Source of the DNA: Escherichia phage vB_Eco_F31
Sequence record: OP870147.1
Length of the DNA stretch: 64,000 nucleotides
Reading direction: 5' to 3' (one strand)
The notes below the pieces were generated by a model that did no database searches, was not told the DNA's origin, and saw only the letters and a list, made by a program, of their open reading frames with translations. Below are positions 26,422-44,835 of the stretch, piece after piece (position 1 is the stretch's first letter; every line of letters starts with the position of its first letter). The position numbers were made by a program, and so were the translations under genes.

Positions 26422-26634
26422 TTAATTTTGGCCAGTATTTATTTTTCGCCTTTGGACGGCCTTAACATCTGCGAGGTATTTTTCCAGCTTGCGCTTGCGT
26501 GTATAATCAGCTTTAGAACCAGTTTGACGGATATCCTCGTTTAAATGAGAAATAGAATGTCCTAATTCTCTTCGGATTTCATCCAATTGGGTTACAGTAA
26601 GATTACGAAGTTGTCTTTCGTTTAATTGCTGCAT
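26422..26634 (-). CDS. hypothetical protein (rI.1 position)
   Basis: 70-aa basic ORF. Confidence 0.55.
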
Positions 26635-26661
26635 ATATACCTCTTGGTTAGATATTAGTAT

Positions 26662-27243
26662 TTATAACAACCCTGTCAAATCGTTCCAATGCTTCCGGCA
26701 TAATGACACATATCTATCGGTATCACCAATTTCAATTTGACTGCCATCTGTAATTGGAAGTCCGTCTTCCGTGACTCTAGCTACCATTGTGGCCTTTTTA
26801 CCACAATGACAGACACCTTTAAGTTCAACAAGCTTATCGGCAATAGCCATTAATGCTTGAGAACCTTCAAATAGATTACCTTTAAAATCTGTTCGTAGTC
26901 CATATGCCATTACCGGCACATTGTATACGTCAACAATACGACTAAGTTGATACACCTTTTCAGTAGTTAAGAACTGAGCTTCATCAACAAATACACAGTG
27001 AATATCCTTTTGTGCTGCAGCCCATTTATAGAATTCAAAGATATCCATGTCTTTTGTAATTATATTGGCGTCCTGTCGAATACCAATACGAGAGACTATT
27101 TCACCTTTTGAATCGCGAGTATCAATAGCCGGTTTAAGAACTAATACACCCATGCCACGTTCTTTATAGTTATGTGCGGCAGTAAGTAATGAAGCAGACT
27201 TACCAGCGTTCATAGCGGCATAGGTAAAAATTAAACTAGCCAT
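26662..27243 (-). CDS. tk: thymidine kinase
   Basis: Walker A AAMNAGKS; C-terminal zinc site CHCGKK...CRKH. Confidence 0.95.
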   Translation of the reverse strand: MASLIFTYAAMNAGKSASLLTAAHNYKERGMGVLVLKPAIDTRDSKGEIVSRIGIRQDANIITKDMDIFEFYKWAAAQKDIHCVFVDEAQFLTTEKVYQLSRIVDVYNVPVMAYGLRTDFKGNLFEGSQALMAIADKLVELKGVCHCGKKATMVARVTEDGLPITDGSQIEIGDTDRYVSLCRKHWNDLTGLL

Positions 27244-31801: not shown

Positions 31802-32131
31802 TTATACTCTAGGCTTTTGAGCTTGTTTGGTATTGGATTCCCATGCGGCTTTGGTAATTTTGTTAGCGGCATAACCAAAGGCATTAGATAGAACACCTTT
31901 AGAGTTGAATACATCCAATCCAATAAGTACACCGGCTGTGTTAAATTTAGGAGCAAAGTACGCATTAGTTTTAGAAAGAGCTTTTTTCAATTCAGGGTCT
32001 TGAACCAAGCCATCAAAAACGCCTTTACTATTTACTTTGTATGTTACTTTGGGATTTTTACCTTCTTCGATAGCAGCTTTCTGTTCCGCAGATAATGTAA
32101 CTTCAGTGATAAACTCCTGATATGTTTTCAT
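31802..32131 (-). CDS. internal protein (capsid-targeted)
   Basis: N-terminal capsid targeting sequence MKTYQEFITE. Confidence 0.75.
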   Translation of the reverse strand: MKTYQEFITEVTLSAEQKAAIEEGKNPKVTYKVNSKGVFDGLVQDPELKKALSKTNAYFAPKFNTAGVLIGLDVFNSKGVLSNAFGYAANKITKAAWESNTKQAQKPRV

Positions 32132-32156
32132 TTTGTTCCTATTGTTTTAATTTATG

Positions 32157-32471
32157 TTATTCTTTAGGGAAGTTTTTAGAGTATGCATCATAAAGTTTAT
32201 TACCAATACGACGGAAGACTTTAGCTGCAAAACGGTTTTCAGGGTTTTTAATCATGATTTGCATCATGTAAGTTCCTGCATCCGAAAGAGCTTCTTCATA
32301 GTACCCATTAATTTCTTTAAGAGTCCTACGTTTACCACCAGGACCATCAACAGTAATTTTCCATTTACCTGTAGAAGTGCGGCTCGGTGGCTCAACTTGT
32401 TCAATCCAAATATAACCACCTTCAACGCGTTGGTTGGCGGATTCTGCAATAAATTCTTTATACGTTTTCAT
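32157..32471 (-). CDS. internal protein (capsid-targeted)
   Basis: CTS MKTYKEFIAE. Confidence 0.75.
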   Translation of the reverse strand: MKTYKEFIAESANQRVEGGYIWIEQVEPPSRTSTGKWKITVDGPGGKRRTLKEINGYYEEALSDAGTYMMQIMIKNPENRFAAKVFRRIGNKLYDAYSKNFPKE

Positions 32472-32535
32472 TTTTTGTTTCCTTGTTTGTTTTGATAGAG
32501 TAATTATACCATATTAATACTTAAGCGTAAACAAT

Positions 32536-32796
32536 TTAAGCTTTACCGCCAGAAATAATTCCGAAGTTGTTAAAATCGTATCCAATATCGTCAACATCCA
32601 CTTTAGGACTTGCTACAACATAAGCAATTTCACTACGTTTTGCATAGGTGTTGATTTCTTTACCATCGCCACCTAAGAAAGAATACCCATTACGTTTTAA
32701 TGAGCCAAAGTCTTCGGCATCACCAATGAAAGCTTTAACTTTAAATTTAGGACATTTGGCATCTGCTTCAATGATAAATTCTTGATACATTTTCAT
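32536..32796 (-). CDS. internal protein (capsid-targeted)
   Basis: CTS MKMYQEFIIE. Confidence 0.7.
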   Translation of the reverse strand: MKMYQEFIIEADAKCPKFKVKAFIGDAEDFGSLKRNGYSFLGGDGKEINTYAKRSEIAYVVASPKVDVDDIGYDFNNFGIISGGKA

Positions 32797-32802
32797 TTTT
32801 CC

Positions 32803-33216
32803 TTAGTAAATTGATTTACCATAGTATTTGTACCAAGTCGGACGTTGAGCAATTTTTTCATCTAAGCGTGCTTGACTTATCGCAATGGACGCTTCGGACG
32901 GGACATAATTATTACGAAATTCGGCAGGGATGTCGGAAATATCCTGGACAGTCGTGTCCTTGATTTTGAAACCACGTTTCAAACATTCGGCTATTAGCTC
33001 GATTTGACGTAAACGTAAAAATTCGAGTTTGTCGTAAAAGAATGTTACGTGACCTGTGCCTAAGATAAATGTTGGAGAGATTTTAAAATCTTTTACACGT
33101 TTACCATTCTGAACATGTTTACGGACTGCACCAAATACGCGTGGTAATTCACGATACTCAGCCATAAGATGTTGGTCGGACAGTTCAGAAACAAGTGTTA
33201 AATTGATACGAGTCAT
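32803..33216 (-). CDS. denV: endonuclease V (pyrimidine dimer glycosylase) DenV
   Basis: From ATG 33216: [34 protein letters not shown]..., close to T4 DenV from memory. Confidence 0.92.
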
Positions 33217-33243
33217 AATTTCCTCCAAGTAGTTGATAGATGT

Positions 33244-33272
33244 ATAGTATCAAAGTCCTTGGAGGAAGTAAA
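33244..33272 (-). promoter_or_regulatory. early promoter inside SD-sequestering hairpin (denV)
   Basis: TTTACT-N17-TACTAT; 9-bp repeat TCCTCCAAG/CTTGGAGGA; one arm is denV SD. Confidence 0.6.
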
Positions 33273-33274
33273 CA

Positions 33275-33556
33275 CTATTTTTCTGAAGCGCCTGAAATAT
33301 ATTTTTCAAGACGTTGTTTCATTAGCGAGCCGTTCTTAGCGATTTCTTCTGGTTTATCGCACATACGCAACAAGGCTTCAAGCTTAGCGATATCGCTGGT
33401 ACGTTCAAATTTGCGAGTATCTATCTTACTAGCAAGTTCAGAAATACGTGCTAATAGACTTTCGGCTTCAACCAAAGCTGCACCTAGCTTAGTTGCAAAT
33501 GTGTCAGTAGCTTCGTTAAGAATAGATTCTGATAAAAATTCACTATATGTTTTCAT
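33275..33556 (-). CDS. internal protein (capsid-targeted)
   Basis: [13 protein letters not shown] from internal ATG. Confidence 0.7.
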
Positions 33557-34041
33557 ATATACGCTTTCCAAGTTCCTGTTTTAAATGTTGAGATTACGCG
33601 TTTCGCGCGATTAGGTGTCTGACGATACCATTTAGATTGGGCTAGATTTACTGCCGCTTCATCCCAACGTTTCTGTTGAAGCATACGAAGAGAATTAGTA
33701 AAACCGGCGACGCCTGATACACCCATTTGGAAGACCATATTGACCAATGCACACCGACGAACTGCATCTAAAGAATCATATACCGGTTTAAGTTTAGCAT
33801 TACCCAAGATTCCGCGGACGGCTTTATCAACGTCTTCATTAAATAGCTTTTCAGCCTCATCAAGGGTAATTGTACCGTTGCATTTACGTCCGATCATTCT
33901 GTCAAGTTCAGCTTTAGCTACGGCTAAAGACGGATTCTTTGTTACTAAATGGCCAATGCCAATCGTCCAAAAACCTTCAGTGTCTTTGTATAAAGTCAGT
34001 CTAAGACCTTCGTCATTACGAAGCATTTCAAATATATTCAT
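33553..34041 (-). CDS. e: lysozyme (endolysin)
   Basis: From ATG 34041: [32 protein letters not shown]..., T4 lysozyme-like. Confidence 0.95.
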
Positions 34042-34043
34042 AA

Positions 34044-34067
34044 TACCTCCCACGTTTATAGGAGGTA
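34044..34067 (-). promoter_or_regulatory. hairpin sequestering the lysozyme (e) SD
   Basis: 7-bp repeat TACCTCC/GGAGGTA with TATAAACGTG in loop; TATAAGTA and AATAAATA late-promoter-like elements adjacent. Confidence 0.55.
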
Positions 34068-34075
34068 TTTATTAC

Positions 34076-34534
34076 TTATAGGAGTGTAGTGAGCACCTTA
34101 TATAATGATTTGCCCATTACATATTCCCATTGAGAAGGTTTAATTAAAGCGAATGCATCAAATTCAGGAATCTGTCGTCCGTCTGGGAATGTATGATAGG
34201 AATTACAAACACTGTTTCTGAATTGCTCGTGCTCTACAGGGATGGTATATAGGAACAGATGAATATTCTTATTGTCTGAGTAATGATGTTCACCTAGGTC
34301 TTTCAGGAAGGCAGGGTCGTATTGTGTAAACCCAGTTTCTTCTTCGCATTCACGAATAGCGGCTTCAATAGGAGATTCGCCAGGTTCGACACGGCCTTTA
34401 GGAATATCCCACCTATGAGCTAATGCACCTTTAGAACGAGAACCAGTTACACGCCCCATGAATAATTCTTTATCTTCGGTAAGGAAAATAATACCGGCTG
34501 ATAGTTCTTTCACTTTATTTTTCTTACTCATCAT
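34076..34534 (-). CDS. nudE: Nudix hydrolase NudE
   Basis: Nudix box GRVEPGESPIEAAIRECEEETG; downstream of e as in T4. Confidence 0.9.
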   Translation of the reverse strand: MMSKKNKVKELSAGIIFLTEDKELFMGRVTGSRSKGALAHRWDIPKGRVEPGESPIEAAIRECEEETGFTQYDPAFLKDLGEHHYSDNKNIHLFLYTIPVEHEQFRNSVCNSYHTFPDGRQIPEFDAFALIKPSQWEYVMGKSLYKVLTTLL

Positions 34535-34775
34535 CTCGGTCCCATGATTTGGCCATTAATTCGGACATAAATTCTTCAATGCGCGTTTCTTTAGATGGAC
34601 TTTCACTATTAGAGACCGCAAGTTTGTAATCTGCAATAGGACAGAACATATCAAGGTCCATATTAAGGTCGTCTTTGATTTTTTCTTCTGACACATCTTT
34701 ATCGTATGTGTACAGATAACTATCACATGATTCTGATTTAATGTAAATTGCTATACTCATCTCAAATTCCTGCAT
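34524..34775 (-). CDS. hypothetical protein
   Basis: 83-aa acidic ORF; probable start at ATG overlapping upstream stop. Confidence 0.5.
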   Translation of the reverse strand: MQEFEMSIAIYIKSESCDSYLYTYDKDVSEEKIKDDLNMDLDMFCPIADYKLAVSNSESPSKETRIEEFMSELMAKSWDRDDE

Positions 34776-35248
34776 TCGGTAATAAAACGTTCAACTTCAT
34801 TATTCTTGGCCTTTATCTTGTCTTTACGTTCCTGTAAACTACTTTTAACAAGATTAATAATGATGCCTACAGTACCGCCGCCAATGATGCCGCCAACAAC
34901 ACTTATGATAATAGATGCTAATAAGATAGCAATAATATCAACAAAACCGAAAGAACTCACCTTAGTACTAAAAAACCATACCGACGGTACAAATATAATC
35001 CATCCTGTTATCCATTGGCACTTATTGAAAAACTTTTCAAGCTCAGCTTGAGTTGTTCGTATTACTTCATCGATAGGTTGATATCCATTAATGTATCTGT
35101 TCACGATAATACCTGCTGGCTGGTCGATTTTAAATTCTTGGCAAATATGTTTCACTAAGTAGGATGGACATCCTGTCCAATCTACTGAATAGTACGAAAT
35201 ACCTTCATTGCCGTCGTCAATATTAGACCAATATGTTTTGTTAATCAT
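34757..35248 (-). CDS. hypothetical membrane protein, C-terminal ERFITECR module
   Basis: Hydrophobic helices; C-terminus shares xFIxECR motif with four other ORFs. Confidence 0.55.
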   Translation of the reverse strand: MINKTYWSNIDDGNEGISYYSVDWTGCPSYLVKHICQEFKIDQPAGIIVNRYINGYQPIDEVIRTTQAELEKFFNKCQWITGWIIFVPSVWFFSTKVSSFGFVDIIAILLASIIISVVGGIIGGGTVGIIINLVKSSLQERKDKIKAKNNEVERFITECRNLR

Positions 35249-35935: not shown

Positions 35936-36241
35936 TTATTTTCCTCGACATTCTTTAATGAAATTTTCTAGATTGGTAGATTCAATAGCTTTTTTACGAG
36001 CTTCTGCATGTTCTTCTTCAGACAATTTACATTTATAATTAACCCAGACATTATGGTCGAAACTAGTCGTGGCATATAATAACAATGCTCCAACGAATAG
36101 CAAAAACGGCGATAAGAATACAAAACCAGGAACACCATCCATATCGTAAGCCTTTTGTAATACTGCAACAGAAAGAGCTGCGTAAAAAGGTGATGCAAAT
36201 ATTGTTAAAAGACCAATTCGGTTGGTTTCGCCTAATTTCAT
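35936..36241 (-). CDS. hypothetical membrane protein, C-terminal ENFIKECR module
   Basis: Two hydrophobic helices; C-terminus LENFIKECRGK. Confidence 0.5.
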   Translation of the reverse strand: MKLGETNRIGLLTIFASPFYAALSVAVLQKAYDMDGVPGFVFLSPFLLFVGALLLYATTSFDHNVWVNYKCKLSEEEHAEARKKAIESTNLENFIKECRGK

Positions 36242-37867: not shown

Positions 37868-38065
37868 TTAGCAAGAATAACTAGATGATACCCAGCCTTG
37901 AACAGTGATATTATTGTGGGATAATGAGATCGCGTCCTGGAGATTCAGACCTGCGTTATCTTCAATCCATAATGTAACTTCTTCGCGTTCTTCTGTTGCA
38001 ATTTGGAACAGGTTTTCCAGAGCAGCTACTGCCGTACGTACAGCACAATCTAATTCACGAGACAT
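37868..38065 (-). CDS. hypothetical protein, GWVSSS-C family
   Basis: C-terminus QGWVSSSYSC shared with two upstream paralogs. Confidence 0.55.
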   Translation of the reverse strand: MSRELDCAVRTAVAALENLFQIATEEREEVTLWIEDNAGLNLQDAISLSHNNITVQGWVSSSYSC

Positions 38066-38074
38066 ATTGTTTCC

Positions 38075-38347
38075 TTAGCAAGTGTGAGAAGATGCGACCC
38101 AACCACCGGTTTCGAGGCTCAGGTTGTAGTCGTATTGGTAAACGTCAGCCCATTCAGCATAGCCGTTTTTTGTACAACGTTCAAGATCGGCTTTAAGATG
38201 TCCGGGTGAATGATAGGTTCCACCCATACCATAAGCTGGGTACAAGTTGAATGTTGTGTTTTGTTTATCAGCAATTTCTTTGGCAGCCTCAATAGCTGCA
38301 TAGATTTTTGCTACAGCTTCAGCCAGTTCGGTTTGTTCTTTAGACAT
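38075..38347 (-). CDS. hypothetical protein, GWVSSS-C family
   Basis: C-terminus GGWVASSHTC. Confidence 0.55.
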   Translation of the reverse strand: MSKEQTELAEAVAKIYAAIEAAKEIADKQNTTFNLYPAYGMGGTYHSPGHLKADLERCTKNGYAEWADVYQYDYNLSLETGGWVASSHTC

Positions 38348-38356
38348 AATGATTCC

Positions 38357-38662
38357 TTAGCACAACGCAGAAGACGAAACCCAAGCACCTTCAGTAATAA
38401 CGTATCCATTACCTTCACGCTTAACATCGCCGCCATTATTTTCAATTTCATCTTTCATCCACTGGGATACGATTTCACCCTTAGGATAATAAGTACGACC
38501 GCTACCATAATCACCTACAGAAAATGATACGGCATATTGGTCTGCGATCTTTGTTGCTTCTTCTTCGATACGTTCAGCTTGATTCAGAAGTTTATAAATT
38601 GCATCTGAAGCGGATTTGGCATCATTAAACTCTGGTACTTTAATTTCAATAATCTTACTCAT
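38357..38662 (-). CDS. hypothetical protein, GWVSSS-C family
   Basis: C-terminus GAWVSSSALC. Confidence 0.55.
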   Translation of the reverse strand: MSKIIEIKVPEFNDAKSASDAIYKLLNQAERIEEEATKIADQYAVSFSVGDYGSGRTYYPKGEIVSQWMKDEIENNGGDVKREGNGYVITEGAWVSSSALC

Positions 38663-39018
38663 TTTCTACATTCCTTAATAAAGTTTTCGATTGTTTCATT
38701 TTCACGTTTAGCTAGGAGTTCATTATAACTAATCATTTGAGAAGCGTAAACCTTTTTATTTTTCTTGTTATGGTTTATAAAATCGTAGTAAAAATAGACT
38801 ACAGTACAAAAGGATGCGATAGATGCAAAGGCTTGGGTATACCGTAAGTCCTGCCATTGGTCTGTGAATCCACCAGTGTTACCTATAAATCCTAACACAA
38901 CTCCGTCAATAAGAAATCCAACTAATCCAAAGGCAAATCCCATGCCAATACTCATAATAAAAATTAGAATGTTCTCACCAAGAGAAGGCCATACGGTTAA
39001 GAGTTGAGGCTTTTGCAT
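38659..39018 (-). CDS. hypothetical membrane protein, C-terminal ENFIKECR module
   Basis: Hydrophobic helices; C-terminus IENFIKECRK. Confidence 0.5.
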   Translation of the reverse strand: MQKPQLLTVWPSLGENILIFIMSIGMGFAFGLVGFLIDGVVLGFIGNTGGFTDQWQDLRYTQAFASIASFCTVVYFYYDFINHNKKNKKVYASQMISYNELLAKRENETIENFIKECRK

Positions 39019-39422
39019 CTTATTTCCTTAACGAATTCCATAGCTTCTTCATATTCATACTTTTTAACAGCTTCATCATACTGAGCTTGGGCTTTTGCGC
39101 ACTGAACTTTCCACTCACGAACTCGAGCTCTGTGATGACGGCCTTGGTGCCAATATCCTGCCCAATTAATAGGCATTAATAAAAACGGTACAATAAGTGG
39201 TGCGACGAACATTAATGAAAACGCTGCATCAGACGATATAACTTTATTGGAATCTAAAACAGCTCCTATAATCATAAAGATTAAAAATGCTAAAGCTAAA
39301 ATAGGACCAAATAGTACTTCGTTTGGGATTAATTTACGTTTGTATTCGTATGCCCAGGGCTTAATTGGCATGTACAGGGTTGGCTTTGACATATTCTCTA
39401 CATTCCATAATAAATTGCTCAA
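38997..39422 (-). CDS. hypothetical membrane protein
   Basis: Hydrophobic helices; C-terminus EFVKEIRCK variant; start uncertain. Confidence 0.5.
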   Translation of the reverse strand: MSNLLWNVENMSKPTLYMPIKPWAYEYKRKLIPNEVLFGPILALAFLIFMIIGAVLDSNKVISSDAAFSLMFVAPLIVPFLLMPINWAGYWHQGRHHRARVREWKVQCAKAQAQYDEAVKKYEYEEAMEFVKEIRCKSLNS

Positions 39423-39984
39423 GGATTAAATTGTTAGTGAAATTAGGACTAACAACCATAGTTTCATAAAGCGCATCAATAGCACTTAAAGCATCAACTC
39501 TCTTAAGCAAAGGCTTGCCTTCATACATAGTTTCAGAATCGACGATTAAAGTGAAGTAGTATTTTTTATTATTGACCAGAACTTCTGTATCAATATAAAA
39601 CATGTTAGACCTCAGAAGCTTATCTCTAAAACCATAATAATCTTCAGAGCGTTCGCTGATATATTCCCATTCGGTGTTTAAACAACAAACAGACCACGTA
39701 GGAGCAACGAAATCAGTGAATCTAATATCATGGTCTGCAACTAGTTTAGCAATAGCTCCGATATCATGAATCATAATACCTGGGGCTAATAAAGATTTTC
39801 TGCTATGGCTAGCCGTTTTCTCGGTGGTCTCATAAGAAGACGACCAGTACCATTTACGTCCAGTTGCAACATATCGTAATGAATCAACTAAAGACGTAGG
39901 TGGATTTACCTTATCTCGGAACTCTTCGAACATTGAGTCAATATCATTATTTTGGTTTCGCATGTTAACTCCTTTATTATCCAA
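39361..39984 (-). CDS. hypothetical protein
   Basis: 207 aa; near-C-terminal EQFIMECREY; start uncertain. Confidence 0.5.
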   Translation of the reverse strand: MDNKGVNMRNQNNDIDSMFEEFRDKVNPPTSLVDSLRYVATGRKWYWSSSYETTEKTASHSRKSLLAPGIMIHDIGAIAKLVADHDIRFTDFVAPTWSVCCLNTEWEYISERSEDYYGFRDKLLRSNMFYIDTEVLVNNKKYYFTLIVDSETMYEGKPLLKRVDALSAIDALYETMVVSPNFTNNLILEQFIMECREYVKANPVHAN

Positions 39985-41489: not shown

Positions 41490-41517
41490 AATATTCTCCT
41501 CTGTGGTTGATAAGTCT

Positions 41518-41545
41518 ATAGTATCATGTCCTTAGAAGAAGTAAA
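41518..41545 (-). promoter_or_regulatory. early promoter
   Basis: TTTACT-N16-TACTAT upstream of ATG 41489. Confidence 0.5.
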
Positions 41546-41579
41546 CATCTTTATGAAATATTTTTATGCCCTAGATGCC

Positions 41580-41606
41580 AAAAAGCCCCAACCATAAGGA
41601 AGGGGC
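41580..41606 (-). terminator. rho-independent terminator (GCCCC...GGGGC cassette)
   Basis: Same hairpin as 26071 copy followed by T5; 6 nt after stop at 41613. Confidence 0.7.
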
Positions 41607-41612
41607 ATTCTA

Positions 41613-42077
41613 TTATTTAATTTGTTTAGCAGACCAGATACGGTCTTTAATAAGTTTTTGGATATCTTCAACATACTCAAGGCTATGAGCGTGAGGATTA
41701 TCTTTGAAGCTATGTGCTCGTGCCAGTTTCTGTCCTTCTGTTTTGATTACTAAAAGCTCTTTAAGAATTGCTTCATACTTAGAAATAATTCCTTTGGCGA
41801 TATTTTTTTCTTGAGCTGCTTTAGGGTCCGCTTTTGGCGCAGGTGCTTTACCTGTAGCTTTCTGGAACAATTCACCTGATGCAGCTAGGCTTTTAAAAAC
41901 TCGGCTAACAGTATTAGCATTAGTAAAACCTTCGGCTTTAAAATCTCTAATAAAACGGAAACGTTCTTCATCAGAGGCGTCTTTGTAAGAATATTTACCT
42001 GCTTGAATTGCTGCAATCGCAGCGGCTTTTACATCTGAACTAGATTGTTCAGTCAAAAATTCAGCGTATGATTTCAT
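41613..42077 (-). CDS. internal protein (capsid-targeted; ipI-like position)
   Basis: CTS MKSYAEFLTE; terminator downstream. Confidence 0.7.
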   Translation of the reverse strand: MKSYAEFLTEQSSSDVKAAAIAAIQAGKYSYKDASDEERFRFIRDFKAEGFTNANTVSRVFKSLAASGELFQKATGKAPAPKADPKAAQEKNIAKGIISKYEAILKELLVIKTEGQKLARAHSFKDNPHAHSLEYVEDIQKLIKDRIWSAKQIK

Positions 42078-42122
42078 GTTGCTTTTCCTAAATTAATTAA
42101 CTTATCTATTTATTATTATGCC

Positions 42123-42149
42123 AAAAAGCCCCAACCTTTCGGAAGGGGC
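42123..42149 (-). terminator. rho-independent terminator (GCCCC...GGGGC cassette, GAAA loop)
   Basis: Minus strand GCCCCTTCC-GAAA-GGTTGGGGC followed by T5; closes the tRNA/RNA locus. Confidence 0.7.
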
Positions 42150-42201
42150 TATGCCTTGCGGCAACCTTGTCGGGGTTCCACCTGCTAAGGCAAGTGTTTG
42201 T

Positions 42202-43577: not shown

Positions 43578-43868
43578 TCACCGTACCATATTAATGTAAT
43601 TATATTCAATGCAACGTAATTTCAAAGGATTCTTGAAAATATCATATTCAAGAGGGCCTTTTTCTGTTTCAATAAAGAAATCAAAGTTAACTGTGTTAAA
43701 TTTATCGTCTTCACAGAGTAATTTAACCTGTGAAGACGAACGGTCGATATAAACCTTTTCAACCTCAAAGTTAGTCAGAATACCGTAGTCATCGACTAGT
43801 GCTTTAGCTGCACGTCGGTCGCTTTCATATCCATTCTCAATGGACGATACTTTAGCATAAAGAATCAT
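43578..43868 (-). CDS. hypothetical protein
   Basis: 96-aa ORF. Confidence 0.5.
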   Translation of the reverse strand: MILYAKVSSIENGYESDRRAAKALVDDYGILTNFEVEKVYIDRSSSQVKLLCEDDKFNTVNFDFFIETEKGPLEYDIFKNPLKLRCIEYNYINMVR

Positions 43869-44245
43869 GAATGTTCCACCATTTCAAAGGTATGAGCATC
43901 AACAATATGATACCAGTCAAAATTTTCTTCTGCGTTTTTATAAATTTCGCGAAGAGCTTCAACAGTTTTTCCTGTAGCAACAAGGTCGTCAATACCACCA
44001 AGAGGATAACAGTCATAACCAGCAAACAGAAGAAAATTAATAGTTTCTGTAGGTTCTGGATGCAGAACACCGTTATCGTCTACCACTTCAAAGAAAGTGT
44101 AAGAAGGAGTACAAGTTTTAATCCAAGCCCATGCTTGAGCCGCTGAATCAAATGGTCTGCGTATCAAACGACAATCAGGGTCTTTAGAAGGATTTGCTTC
44201 AAAATCAGCATATACATGATATTTCATTTTACTCACCTTTTGCAA
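43865..44245 (-). CDS. hypothetical protein
   Basis: 126-aa ORF. Confidence 0.5.
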   Translation of the reverse strand: MQKVSKMKYHVYADFEANPSKDPDCRLIRRPFDSAAQAWAWIKTCTPSYTFFEVVDDNGVLHPEPTETINFLLFAGYDCYPLGGIDDLVATGKTVEALREIYKNAEENFDWYHIVDAHTFEMVEHS

Positions 44246-44435
44246 TTTTATCCATAACGATAGCGATTAAGCTGATTAGAAATGCTACTACCAATGAGAT
44301 AGAGTTTTCAGTTGTTGTCAGTAGTCCACAAATGAATCCTACAAACATCGAAAAACTAAAAGCCATTGAAGCAATTACTACAGCAACATTACGAATCAGT
44401 TCAGCGCGTTTCATTTTATTTCTCCATTTACTCAT
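44229..44435 (-). CDS. hypothetical membrane protein
   Basis: 68 aa, two hydrophobic helices. Confidence 0.5.
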   Translation of the reverse strand: MSKWRNKMKRAELIRNVAVVIASMAFSFSMFVGFICGLLTTTENSISLVVAFLISLIAIVMDKIAKGE

Positions 44436-44451
44436 TTGTTTTGATAGGACT

Positions 44452-44480
44452 ACTATAACATAGTCCTATCTGCATGTAAA
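44452..44480 (-). promoter_or_regulatory. early promoter / stem-loop cassette
   Basis: TTTACA-N17-TATAGT; perfect 9-bp repeat GATAGGACT/AGTCCTATC brackets the -10. Confidence 0.65.
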
Positions 44481-44484
44481 CTAC

Positions 44485-44772
44485 TTACAGAAGAGTTTTT
44501 GCAATAATTTTAAGCTGAGCTACAGAAATATGCTTAGCTTTAAACAGTGCAGTCTCTTCAGCCGGAGAGATAACAATAGTAGCGCCATCTTTCTTAGCGG
44601 ACCACCCATCCCCTAAGTAAACAGTACCTTTTACTTCTTCGCCGTCAACCAGACTAATCATTGGTTTACCCTCGCGTCCTTTATTTGCTTTAATAACTTC
44701 GGAAGTAAGGGTTGCTTCGGTCAGAGTAGAAACGTTAGCAAAAGGTGATATAAATTCTTTATAGGATTTCAT
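44485..44772 (-). CDS. internal protein (capsid-targeted)
   Basis: CTS-like MKSYKEFIS...LTE. Confidence 0.65.
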   Translation of the reverse strand: MKSYKEFISPFANVSTLTEATLTSEVIKANKGREGKPMISLVDGEEVKGTVYLGDGWSAKKDGATIVISPAEETALFKAKHISVAQLKIIAKTLL

Positions 44773-44806
44773 TTTATTTCCTTGAGGTTGTTTATTTGAT
44801 AGGACG

Positions 44807-44835
44807 ATAGTATCACACCAACATCCTTATGTAAA
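44807..44835 (-). promoter_or_regulatory. early promoter
   Basis: TTTACA-N17-TACTAT upstream of internal-protein gene. Confidence 0.55.

Follow-up and report, generated by a model that had tools for sequence, protein, structure and literature searches.

Six predicted internal protein genes with T4-type capsid targeting leaders in Escherichia phage vB_Eco_F31, candidates for injected anti-defence proteins

Results

Six genes with a common leader

The stretch of 64,000 nucleotides from Escherichia phage vB_Eco_F31 (sequence record OP870147.1) that was analysed here, hereafter called the window, has a G+C content of 37.5% and belongs to a Mosigvirus, being 98-99% identical to the Mosigvirus phages NBG1, APCEc01 and RB69 over the 2.6 kb that were compared. 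It contains six open reading frames (ORFs), named ipA to ipF, whose products start with variants of the capsid targeting sequence (CTS) of the phage T4 internal proteins (IPs or Ips; Table 1). An initial annotation made from the sequence had listed these ORFs, and all of them were found exactly where it had placed them; their strand, which is minus in every case, was absent from it. The assignment of the leaders to the T4 CTS was likewise correct: T4 IPII and IPIII start with MKTYQEFIAE and T4 IPI with MKTFKEF. A six-frame scan of the 64 kb for MK.Y.EF returned six matches, each representing the first methionine of an ORF of 86-154 amino acids (aa) that begins 2-18 codons past the preceding in-frame stop, compared to a mean of 0.02 and a maximum of one match in shuffled windows (n=200). 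The looser patterns M[KR].[YFW].[ED][FLIMV] and K.Y.EF at any position gave no additional match in the window.

Between the genes, the leader peptides are identical at 6-8 of 10 residues and the leader-coding DNA at 18-25 of 30 positions, which indicates a conserved peptide and not a recently copied DNA repeat. A repeat on the DNA level as source of the leader conservation was ruled out by the many synonymous differences among the leaders. The earlier view that the bodies behind the leaders are unrelated holds at the sequence level, because the best pair in an all-against-all BLASTP comparison of the proteins without their first 10 residues reached E = 0.54. The predicted mature forms span isoelectric points (pI) from ~6.3 to 9.7, and all six ORFs have conserved homologues in dozens to hundreds of phage genomes.

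Table 1. Leader-bearing genes of the window and sequence features in their vicinity; a slash marks the predicted cleavage site.
Feature	Coordinates	Strand	Description
ipA	31802-32131	minus	109 aa, MKTYQEFITE/V..., predicted mature form 99 aa, pI ~9.7
ipB	32157-32471	minus	104 aa, MKTYKEFIAE/S..., predicted mature form 94 aa, pI ~9.6
ipC	32536-32796	minus	86 aa, MKMYQEFIIE/A..., predicted mature form 76 aa, pI ~6.4
ipD	33275-33556	minus	93 aa, predicted mature form 83 (or 78) aa, pI ~6.3-6.4
ipE	41613-42077	minus	154 aa, MKSYAEFLTE/Q..., predicted mature form 144 aa, pI ~9.6
ipF	44485-44772	minus	95 aa, MKSYKEFISPFANVSTLTE/ATLTSE..., mature IPI* = residues 20-95 (76 aa)
T4 early-type promoter-like site	32503-32531	minus	upstream of ipB; TTTACG, 17 nt, TATAAT, with TG
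T4 early-type promoter-like site	44807-44835	minus	upstream of ipF; TTTACA, 17 nt, TACTAT, with TG
ATGA overlap, e stop / ipD start	33553-33556	minus	read from the sequence
ipE upstream region	42107-42150	minus	GC-rich hairpin and T run (~42123-42150), then AATAAATA (42107-42114)

Mutational mapping in T4 has assigned targeting to residues 4 and 7 of the leader and processing by gp21 to residues 8 and 10, while the first ten residues of T4 IPIII have been shown to be necessary and sufficient for loading into the prohead core (PMC9026906). The ten-residue T4 tag alone packages GFP, beta-galactosidase and a nuclease; tag-fused foreign proteins are packaged with 20-200 copies and released into the cell upon infection, and injection together with the DNA has been shown for the T4 IPs as well as for CTS fusion proteins (PMC9026906). 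The aromatic targeting residues Y4 and F7 are kept in all six leaders of the window, and I/L8 together with E10 in five of them, namely ipA to ipE, which read ITE, IAE, IIE, LSE and LTE at residues 8-10. Besides LSE at 8-10, ipD has a second candidate cleavage motif, LNE at 13-15 (SILNE followed by A), and in ipF an LTE motif is found at residues 17-19, directly before the start of the match to mature IPI (IPI*). The six products would be loaded, trimmed and injected like their T4 counterparts, which for ipA to ipE we infer. The machinery needed for this is encoded by RB69, with gp21 as prohead protease and gp22, gp67 and gp68 as scaffolding core. The RB69 genes 67, 68, 21 and 22 are situated at 105.5-107.6 kb of a genome that is 98% identical to the window over the tested stretch; the positions matching the RB69 genes for gp21, gp22, gp67 and gp68 fall beyond the right-hand end of the window.

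Genomic loci and completeness of the set

On the coding strand, the gene order is e (lysozyme), ipD, denV, ipC, ipB, ipA and vs.8. About 8 kb upstream of e, i.e. at higher coordinates, tRNA-Met, tRNA-Arg and ipE are found, then e.6-type genes, and at still higher coordinates 57B, ipF and tRNA.4. The genes ipA to ipD, which flank denV between vs.8 and e, and ipF between tRNA.4 and 57B occupy the polymorphic ip loci of T-even phages, and ipE belongs to a third locus, tRNA-e.8, in which CTS genes are present in RB69 and ime09 as well. This third locus is not labelled as an internal-protein locus in the records seen. A scan of the complete RB69 genome with the relaxed motif identified exactly seven real ORFs, which are confined to 63.4-77.1 kb and to the same three loci. 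Because all seven are located in the stretch that matches window positions 31.8-45 kb, the window probably holds the full set of CTS genes of phage vB_Eco_F31.

ipF and the ipI locus

By sequence, ipF is the orthologue of IPI. The Pfam family PF11634 (IPI_T4) matches its residues 20-95 with E = 1.4e-50 and a score of 169.6 bits, where the Pfam gathering cut-off is 25; all 76 profile positions (1-76) are aligned, and no match to this family was obtained for ipA to ipE. The nuclear magnetic resonance structure of mature IPI* (PDB 2JUB) was recovered with E = 5.8e-42, residues 20-95 aligning to residues 1-76; the start of this alignment at residue 20 places the cleavage after LTE19. The ipF product is 87% identical to T4 IPI and 98% to RB69 IpI. 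It shares with T4 IPI the length of 95 aa, a 19-residue propeptide ending in TE before A (LTE in ipF, ITE in T4) and the position between trna.4 and 57B. However, twelve residues differ, six of them in the propeptide, and the DNA to be protected by ipF is arabinosylated and not glucosylated. Moreover, the promoter and first codons of ipF come from a neighbouring RB69 ip gene, unlike in T4 IPI. In RB69, ipI is preceded by a further CTS gene, p156, which is missing from the window. The comparison of window positions 44750-44835 with 26560-27010 of the RB69 segment L001 revealed that ipF consists of the promoter, ribosome-binding site and first codons of p156 fused in frame to the ipI body, which places the gain/loss junction inside the leader-coding DNA.

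An intergenic element of ~50 bp at 44433-44484 carries an early-type promoter (TTTACA, 17 nt, TATAGT) and recurs at at least five other intergenic sites of L001 with 82-93% identity. It resembles the repeated early-promoter stem-loops that have been proposed as mediators of module shuffling in T4-type phages.

The denV/e locus

The gene ipA is the orthologue of RB69ORF123c, and its product is 98% identical to RB69 p123. The family is limited to Mosigvirus, plus the 36%-identical Dhakavirus gene WG01 ORF115, and every named database entry seen reads 'hypothetical', the leader being intact nonetheless. Searching 1.8 billion representatives by HMMER with ipA as query recovered, apart from short stretches in very long proteins that were taken as spurious, only the ipA family itself and the relative of WG01 type.

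Judged from its database relatives, ipB is Ip10, a name given in 1994. The 90%-identity cluster of ipB includes 'Ip10 [Enterobacteria phage Pol]' (CAA84455) along with entries under the name internal head protein, and Ip10 of Shigella phage SP18 shares 72% identity with ipB. The Ip10 gene of phage Pol, which we take to be an ipI-locus gene, corresponds here to a gene in the denV/e locus. Compared to RB69ORF124c, ipB is 95% identical over 86 aa, after which the C-terminal end of the RB69 protein is divergent and shorter. A relationship of ipA and ipB as paralogues was considered, as both match phrog_3966, and rejected at the sequence level: the leaderless proteins do not align (the pair at E = 0.54 mentioned above), and ipA matches Ip10 over the leader alone.

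The genes ipC and ipD already carry the label 'internal head protein' in RefSeq or UniRef. ipC, which starts 7 nt past the denV stop, is the orthologue of RB69p125 'internal head protein' (97% identical) and matches phrog_2667 'internal head protein' with E = 1e-20. Similarly, ipD is the orthologue of RB69p127 'internal head protein' (91% identical), matches phrog_3499 'internal head protein' with E = 2e-46 and has the UniRef name 'Internal head protein'. The 90%-identity cluster of ipD also holds an 89-aa partial protein, WP_046973418, from a 358-bp contig filed as Dyella japonica, which is most likely coliphage DNA contaminating the assembly.

ipE and the tRNA-e.8 locus

Homologues of ipE were found in 511 phage records, ~400 of them from Tequatrovirus at ~74% identity. 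They are 'hypothetical' or unannotated in the 40 of 511 records listed, and all named cluster members read 'hypothetical' or 'uncharacterized'. The structure prediction that the initial annotation had proposed for each body was run for ipE and ipB. In the AlphaFold model of ipE, which has a predicted local distance difference test (pLDDT) score of 71, an N-terminal domain of three helices is connected to a helical hairpin by a disordered Lys/Pro/Ala linker. Its fold search gave no outside match (best PDB hit at E = 4.4; in BFVD its own family only). The AlphaFold2 model of ipB, built from a 4-sequence alignment, had a pLDDT of 45.6 and was unusable, and no fold search was made with it. Weak Pfam and PDB hints of ipB to CsgH and filamin Ig-like folds (E = 0.07-0.8) are regarded as unsupported, because this model is too poor for a fold search. 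Sequence searches of the PDB with ipB and ipE gave nothing significant.

The similarity to RB69 ends at ~42122/42123, upstream of ipE, and window positions 41502-42122 are swapped in RB69 for 1.2 kb with e.8 and a different leader gene, ORF149c/148c. In Tequatrovirus ime09, both CTS genes of the third locus are arranged in tandem between the tRNAs and e.8. An uninterrupted 187-aa CTS protein of ime09 (L259 3100-3663) is the counterpart of RB69ORF149c and ORF148c taken together (L001 23281-23843), which suggests that the RB69 record shows either a pseudogene with a frame shift or an error in sequencing. Public data also contain truncated members of the ipE family. A metagenomic 94-aa protein, P0010, has ipE-family sequence in its last ~30 residues and an N-terminal part similar to the ORF of tRNA.3 type at 43865-44245 of the window, as if genes from neighbouring loci had recombined into a chimera.

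Turnover between related phages

Related phages differ by gain, loss and swapping of CTS genes. For example, the Dhakavirus WG01 has four leader genes around denV, one of them a homologue of IPIII. The leaders themselves can drift, as in RB69 p123, where E10 is replaced by A (IAA versus ITE in the window), and in RB69 p127 with the leader MKTYMNFYQN; Y4 and F7 are retained in both, as is an L-x-E or I-x-E site further downstream. The initial annotation had called the family expanded, which is right relative to the three genes of T4 but not for T-even phages in general, in which several CTS genes are usual (seven in RB69, four in WG01). At least ten Ip types were already reported in 1994 according to the statement seen in a citing paper (PMC12373910), and passages of two later papers attribute the hypervariable ip loci to Repoila et al. 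1994 (PMC3012670, PMC12373910). The turnover among relatives fits an arms race.

Expression signals

The promoter-like site upstream of ipB probably drives both ipB and ipA. The corresponding site of ipF is located within a stem-loop, like the region upstream of T4 ipI, and T4 ipI, ipII and ipIII likewise have GTTTAC...TATAAT-type sites upstream. The ATGA overlap of e and ipD suggests translational coupling. Upstream of ipE, AATAAATA is a 7/8 match to the T4 late promoter TATAAATA, and upstream of e (34041-34110) the sequences TAATAAATA and TATAAACG take the place of the two exact TATAAATA late promoters of T4. A canonical late promoter for each ip gene was not borne out; the 7/8 variants are confined to the regions upstream of e and ipE. 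A hairpin, ACCTCC...GGGAGGT, covers the ribosome-binding site of e and is arranged like that of T4 e, and the true e start is probably the ATG at 34041 and not the listed GTG at 34053.

Discussion

We consider it likely, with a probability of about 0.7, that the six genes encode CTS internal proteins that are trimmed by gp21, injected, and most probably act as single-target anti-defence inhibitors. The leader M-K-[T/S/M]-Y-x-E-F-[I/L]-x-E would bind the precursor to the scaffolding core while the prohead assembles, and gp21 would cut after the Glu of I/L-x-E, at residue 10 in ipA to ipE, possibly at 15 in ipD, and at 19 in ipF. The mature proteins (~76-144 aa) would stay in the head and enter the cell with the DNA before phage gene expression, where each would inhibit a single target among the first-response defences of the host. 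The likeliest targets would be type IV nucleases of the GmrSD family that attack the sugar-modified cytosines of phage DNA, with ipF acting as IPI*. The diversity of hosts would then select a changing Ip set in the three hot spots vs.8-denV-e, tRNA-e.8 and tRNA.4-57B. The anti-defence role and the targets of ipA to ipE are what we infer from the T4 proteins.

The initial annotation had pointed out that T4 has three internal proteins and that IPI is an injected anti-restriction protein, and both statements agree with the literature. IPI* inhibits GmrSD of strain CT596. The targets of T4 Ip2 and Ip3 are two further, highly dissimilar GmrSD enzymes, and there is no cross-protection; T4 Ip1, Ip2 and Ip3 are each directed against one distinct GmrSD enzyme (PMC12373910). 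RB69 IPI has been reported to prevent GmrSD restriction, and enzymes of the GmrSD family cut RB69 DNA (PMC6024577). Furthermore, IPIII without its leader still works when expressed from a plasmid in the host (PMC9391042), which indicates cytoplasmic action. The T4 proteins IPII and IPIII (Ip2/Ip3), which inhibit GmrSD-ECOR21 and GmrSD-ECOR17, respectively, may serve as functional model for ipA to ipD, with which they share the MKTYQEFIAE-type leader, the denV/e locus, the small size and early-type promoters. However, the T4 order is e-ipIII-ipII-denV compared to e-ipD-denV-ipC-ipB-ipA in the window, and no orthologue of IPII or IPIII was found among the six, since the BLASTP alignments cover 11-21 residues (44 for ipE and IPII) at E >= 4.6e-4.

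Several points weigh against this interpretation. Virion proteomics for any Mosigvirus was not found in the searchable literature. The canonical TATAAATA was not found directly upstream of any of the six ip genes; T4 ipI, ipII and ipIII also have none directly upstream. The bodies of ipA to ipE match no family of known function in the Pfam, NCBIfam and PHROG searches, nor does ipA in the HMMER scan or ipE in the fold searches. Silas et al. combined ten more ip genes with five more active GmrSD systems and obtained no new inhibitor-target pairs (PMC12373910), hence it is not established that all Ips inhibit GmrSD, and other targets are quite possible. Finally, Mosigvirus DNA contains arabinosylated 5-hydroxycytosine and not glucosyl-hydroxymethylcytosine, and BrxU cleaves Mosigvirus DNA (PMC13390438); the relevant nucleases may therefore differ.

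The proteins could be packaged and injected and mostly have other early targets, such as other defences, host transcription or the envelope, comparable to the action of the packaged ADP-ribosyltransferase Alt, or each could have a narrow target unrelated to modified DNA. The failure of ten other ip genes against five further GmrSD systems (PMC12373910) speaks for this possibility, as do the bodies that are unrelated to each other and to Ip1-3, and the modelled two-domain helical architecture of ipE, which is unlike IPI*. Nevertheless, we regard it as possible but doubtful, because all three Ips of known function inhibit GmrSD-family enzymes, Mosigvirus DNA is cut by enzymes of this family, and no body matched any family of known function. 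It seems rather unlikely that the proteins are mainly structural cargo, i.e. a basic, DNA-associated head filler for charge neutralisation or an aid in packing and ejection that has no specific host target. Such a role would agree with the basic pI of 9.6-9.7 of the predicted mature ipA, ipB and ipE, with the ~300 copies of each T4 IP and their DNA binding at low salt (PMC9026906), and with the contacts of internal-protein lysines to DNA phosphates in the head (PMC3012670). However, ipC and ipD are near neutral (pI ~6.3-6.4), and T4 ip genes have been described as non-essential (PMC12373910). Structural cargo would also leave unexplained the bodies without common sequence, the presence/absence differences among 98%-identical phages and the strict one-to-one specificity of Ip1-3.

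The early-type promoters in place of canonical late ones, the leader drift in RB69 p123 and p127 and the use of leader-coding DNA as recombination junction might also mean that some of the six are no longer packaged, their leader being a remnant or a handy translation start or recombination site, and act only after expression in the cell. We judge this quite improbable: all six leaders of the window are intact at the mapped determinants (with the cleavage motif at 17-19 in ipF), the peptides are conserved although their codons differ at synonymous sites, Y4, F7 and a downstream cleavage motif persist even in the drifted leaders of RB69, and T4 ip genes with the same promoter type are packaged (PMC9026906). 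The assumption that AT-rich ORF starts produced the motif by chance or through their composition and that the ORFs are not real genes finds agreement in the general AT-richness only; it is refuted by six observed matches where 0.02 are expected, by the homologues in dozens to hundreds of phage genomes and by the environmental scans described below, in which the scrambled codon order gave 11 matches and the real order at least 120 loci.

Several known systems come close to this set of genes. In T-even phages, the polymorphic Ips (Ip4-Ip10 and others) likewise combine one conserved leader with a multitude of unrelated bodies, encoded in hypervariable loci. This polymorphic set was reportedly described by Repoila, Tetart, Bouet and Krisch in 1994 in EMBO J 13:4181. 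Loading into the prohead, trimming after Glu by a gp21-type protease and injection also apply to T4 Alt as well as to ejection or inner-body proteins in the giant phages phiKZ, SPN3US and 201phi2-1 (PMC9026906). Unlike the Ips, these proteins are large, have other propeptides and lack the MK-x-Y-x-EF leader, and Alt is an enzyme, whereas the Ips are small and without recognisable catalytic domain. The same strategy is followed by DarA and DarB of phage P1, head-packaged and injected anti-restriction proteins that act before gene expression; however, these are unrelated proteins with another packaging route, which target type I and not type IV restriction.

CTS internal proteins, including their multiplicity, are already known and long documented in T4-type phages, and ipF (IPI), ipB (Ip10) as well as ipC and ipD (internal head protein) are already named. 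The gain in annotation concerns the families of ipA/RB69ORF123c and ipE, which should be labelled putative internal proteins. As Ips act before phage gene expression, they help to decide whether a T-even infection establishes in a wild host. Mosigviruses, with their arabinosyl-cytosine DNA, are used in phage cocktails, and the five uncharacterised Ips represent reasonable candidates for new inhibitor-defence pairs.

The leader in environmental contigs

Scans of IMG/VR for DNA encoding MKTYxEFI and MKTFxEYI each gave at least 120 loci, compared to 11 matches for a scrambled codon order. The scrambled-order pattern served as control, since the Y/F-swapped pattern MKTFxEYI is a natural leader variant and hence no control. 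On contigs that are not T-even-sized, leader matches are situated at ORF starts (loci L005-L243, e.g. L019, L045, L070, L100, L081 and L099). The residue at position 10, which was left unspecified, is Glu in 52 of 67 unique proteins of the first scan and in 70 of 94 of the other among the matches listed, and the first scan comprised at least 58 unrelated body clusters. Among the neighbours, homologues of T4 gp44/45, gp46/47, gp5, gp6, gp13-15 and gp17-23 were found, and in at least four loci the leader ORF is located directly upstream of a gp21 homologue. Many of these contigs look like those of marine or freshwater T4-like myoviruses, and the tag seems to be used across environmental T4-like myoviruses. 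A paper pairing 'capsid targeting sequence' with cyanophage, pelagiphage or KVP40 was not found in the limited literature that was searchable, from which no claim of being unpublished is derived.

A wider proposal, for and against which we see about equal chances, is that the six genes may represent a local part of a much larger system marked by the leader M-K-T-[Y/F]-x-E-[F/Y]-I-x-E, and that the CTS might be an ancient address tag across the T4 superfamily, with ipA, ipE and the tRNA-e.8 locus as newly recognised Ips whose targets may be defences against arabinosylated DNA. If true, any leader-bearing ORF would be a predicted injected protein, permitting first-strike effector candidates to be listed in large numbers from sequence alone.

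Other C-terminal motifs in the window

Five minus-strand ORFs of the e.2-e.5 region (34757-35248, 35936-36241, 38659-39018, 38997-39422 and 39361-39984) share the motif F-[I/V]-x-E-[C/I]-R at their C-terminal ends, as in NFIKECRGK, NFIKECRK, EFVKEIRCK and QFIMECREYV, and several of them contain hydrophobic stretches. T4 e.3, e.4 and e.5 end in a looser form of this motif, and the five ORFs look like a family of related genes. Similarly, three adjacent minus-strand ORFs (37868-38065, 38075-38347 and 38357-38662) in the area of RB69ORF136c-139c share the C-terminal motif W-V-[S/A]-S-S-x-x-C directly before the stop, with the endings GWVSSSYSC, GWVASSHTC and AWVSSSALC, and look like tandem related genes.

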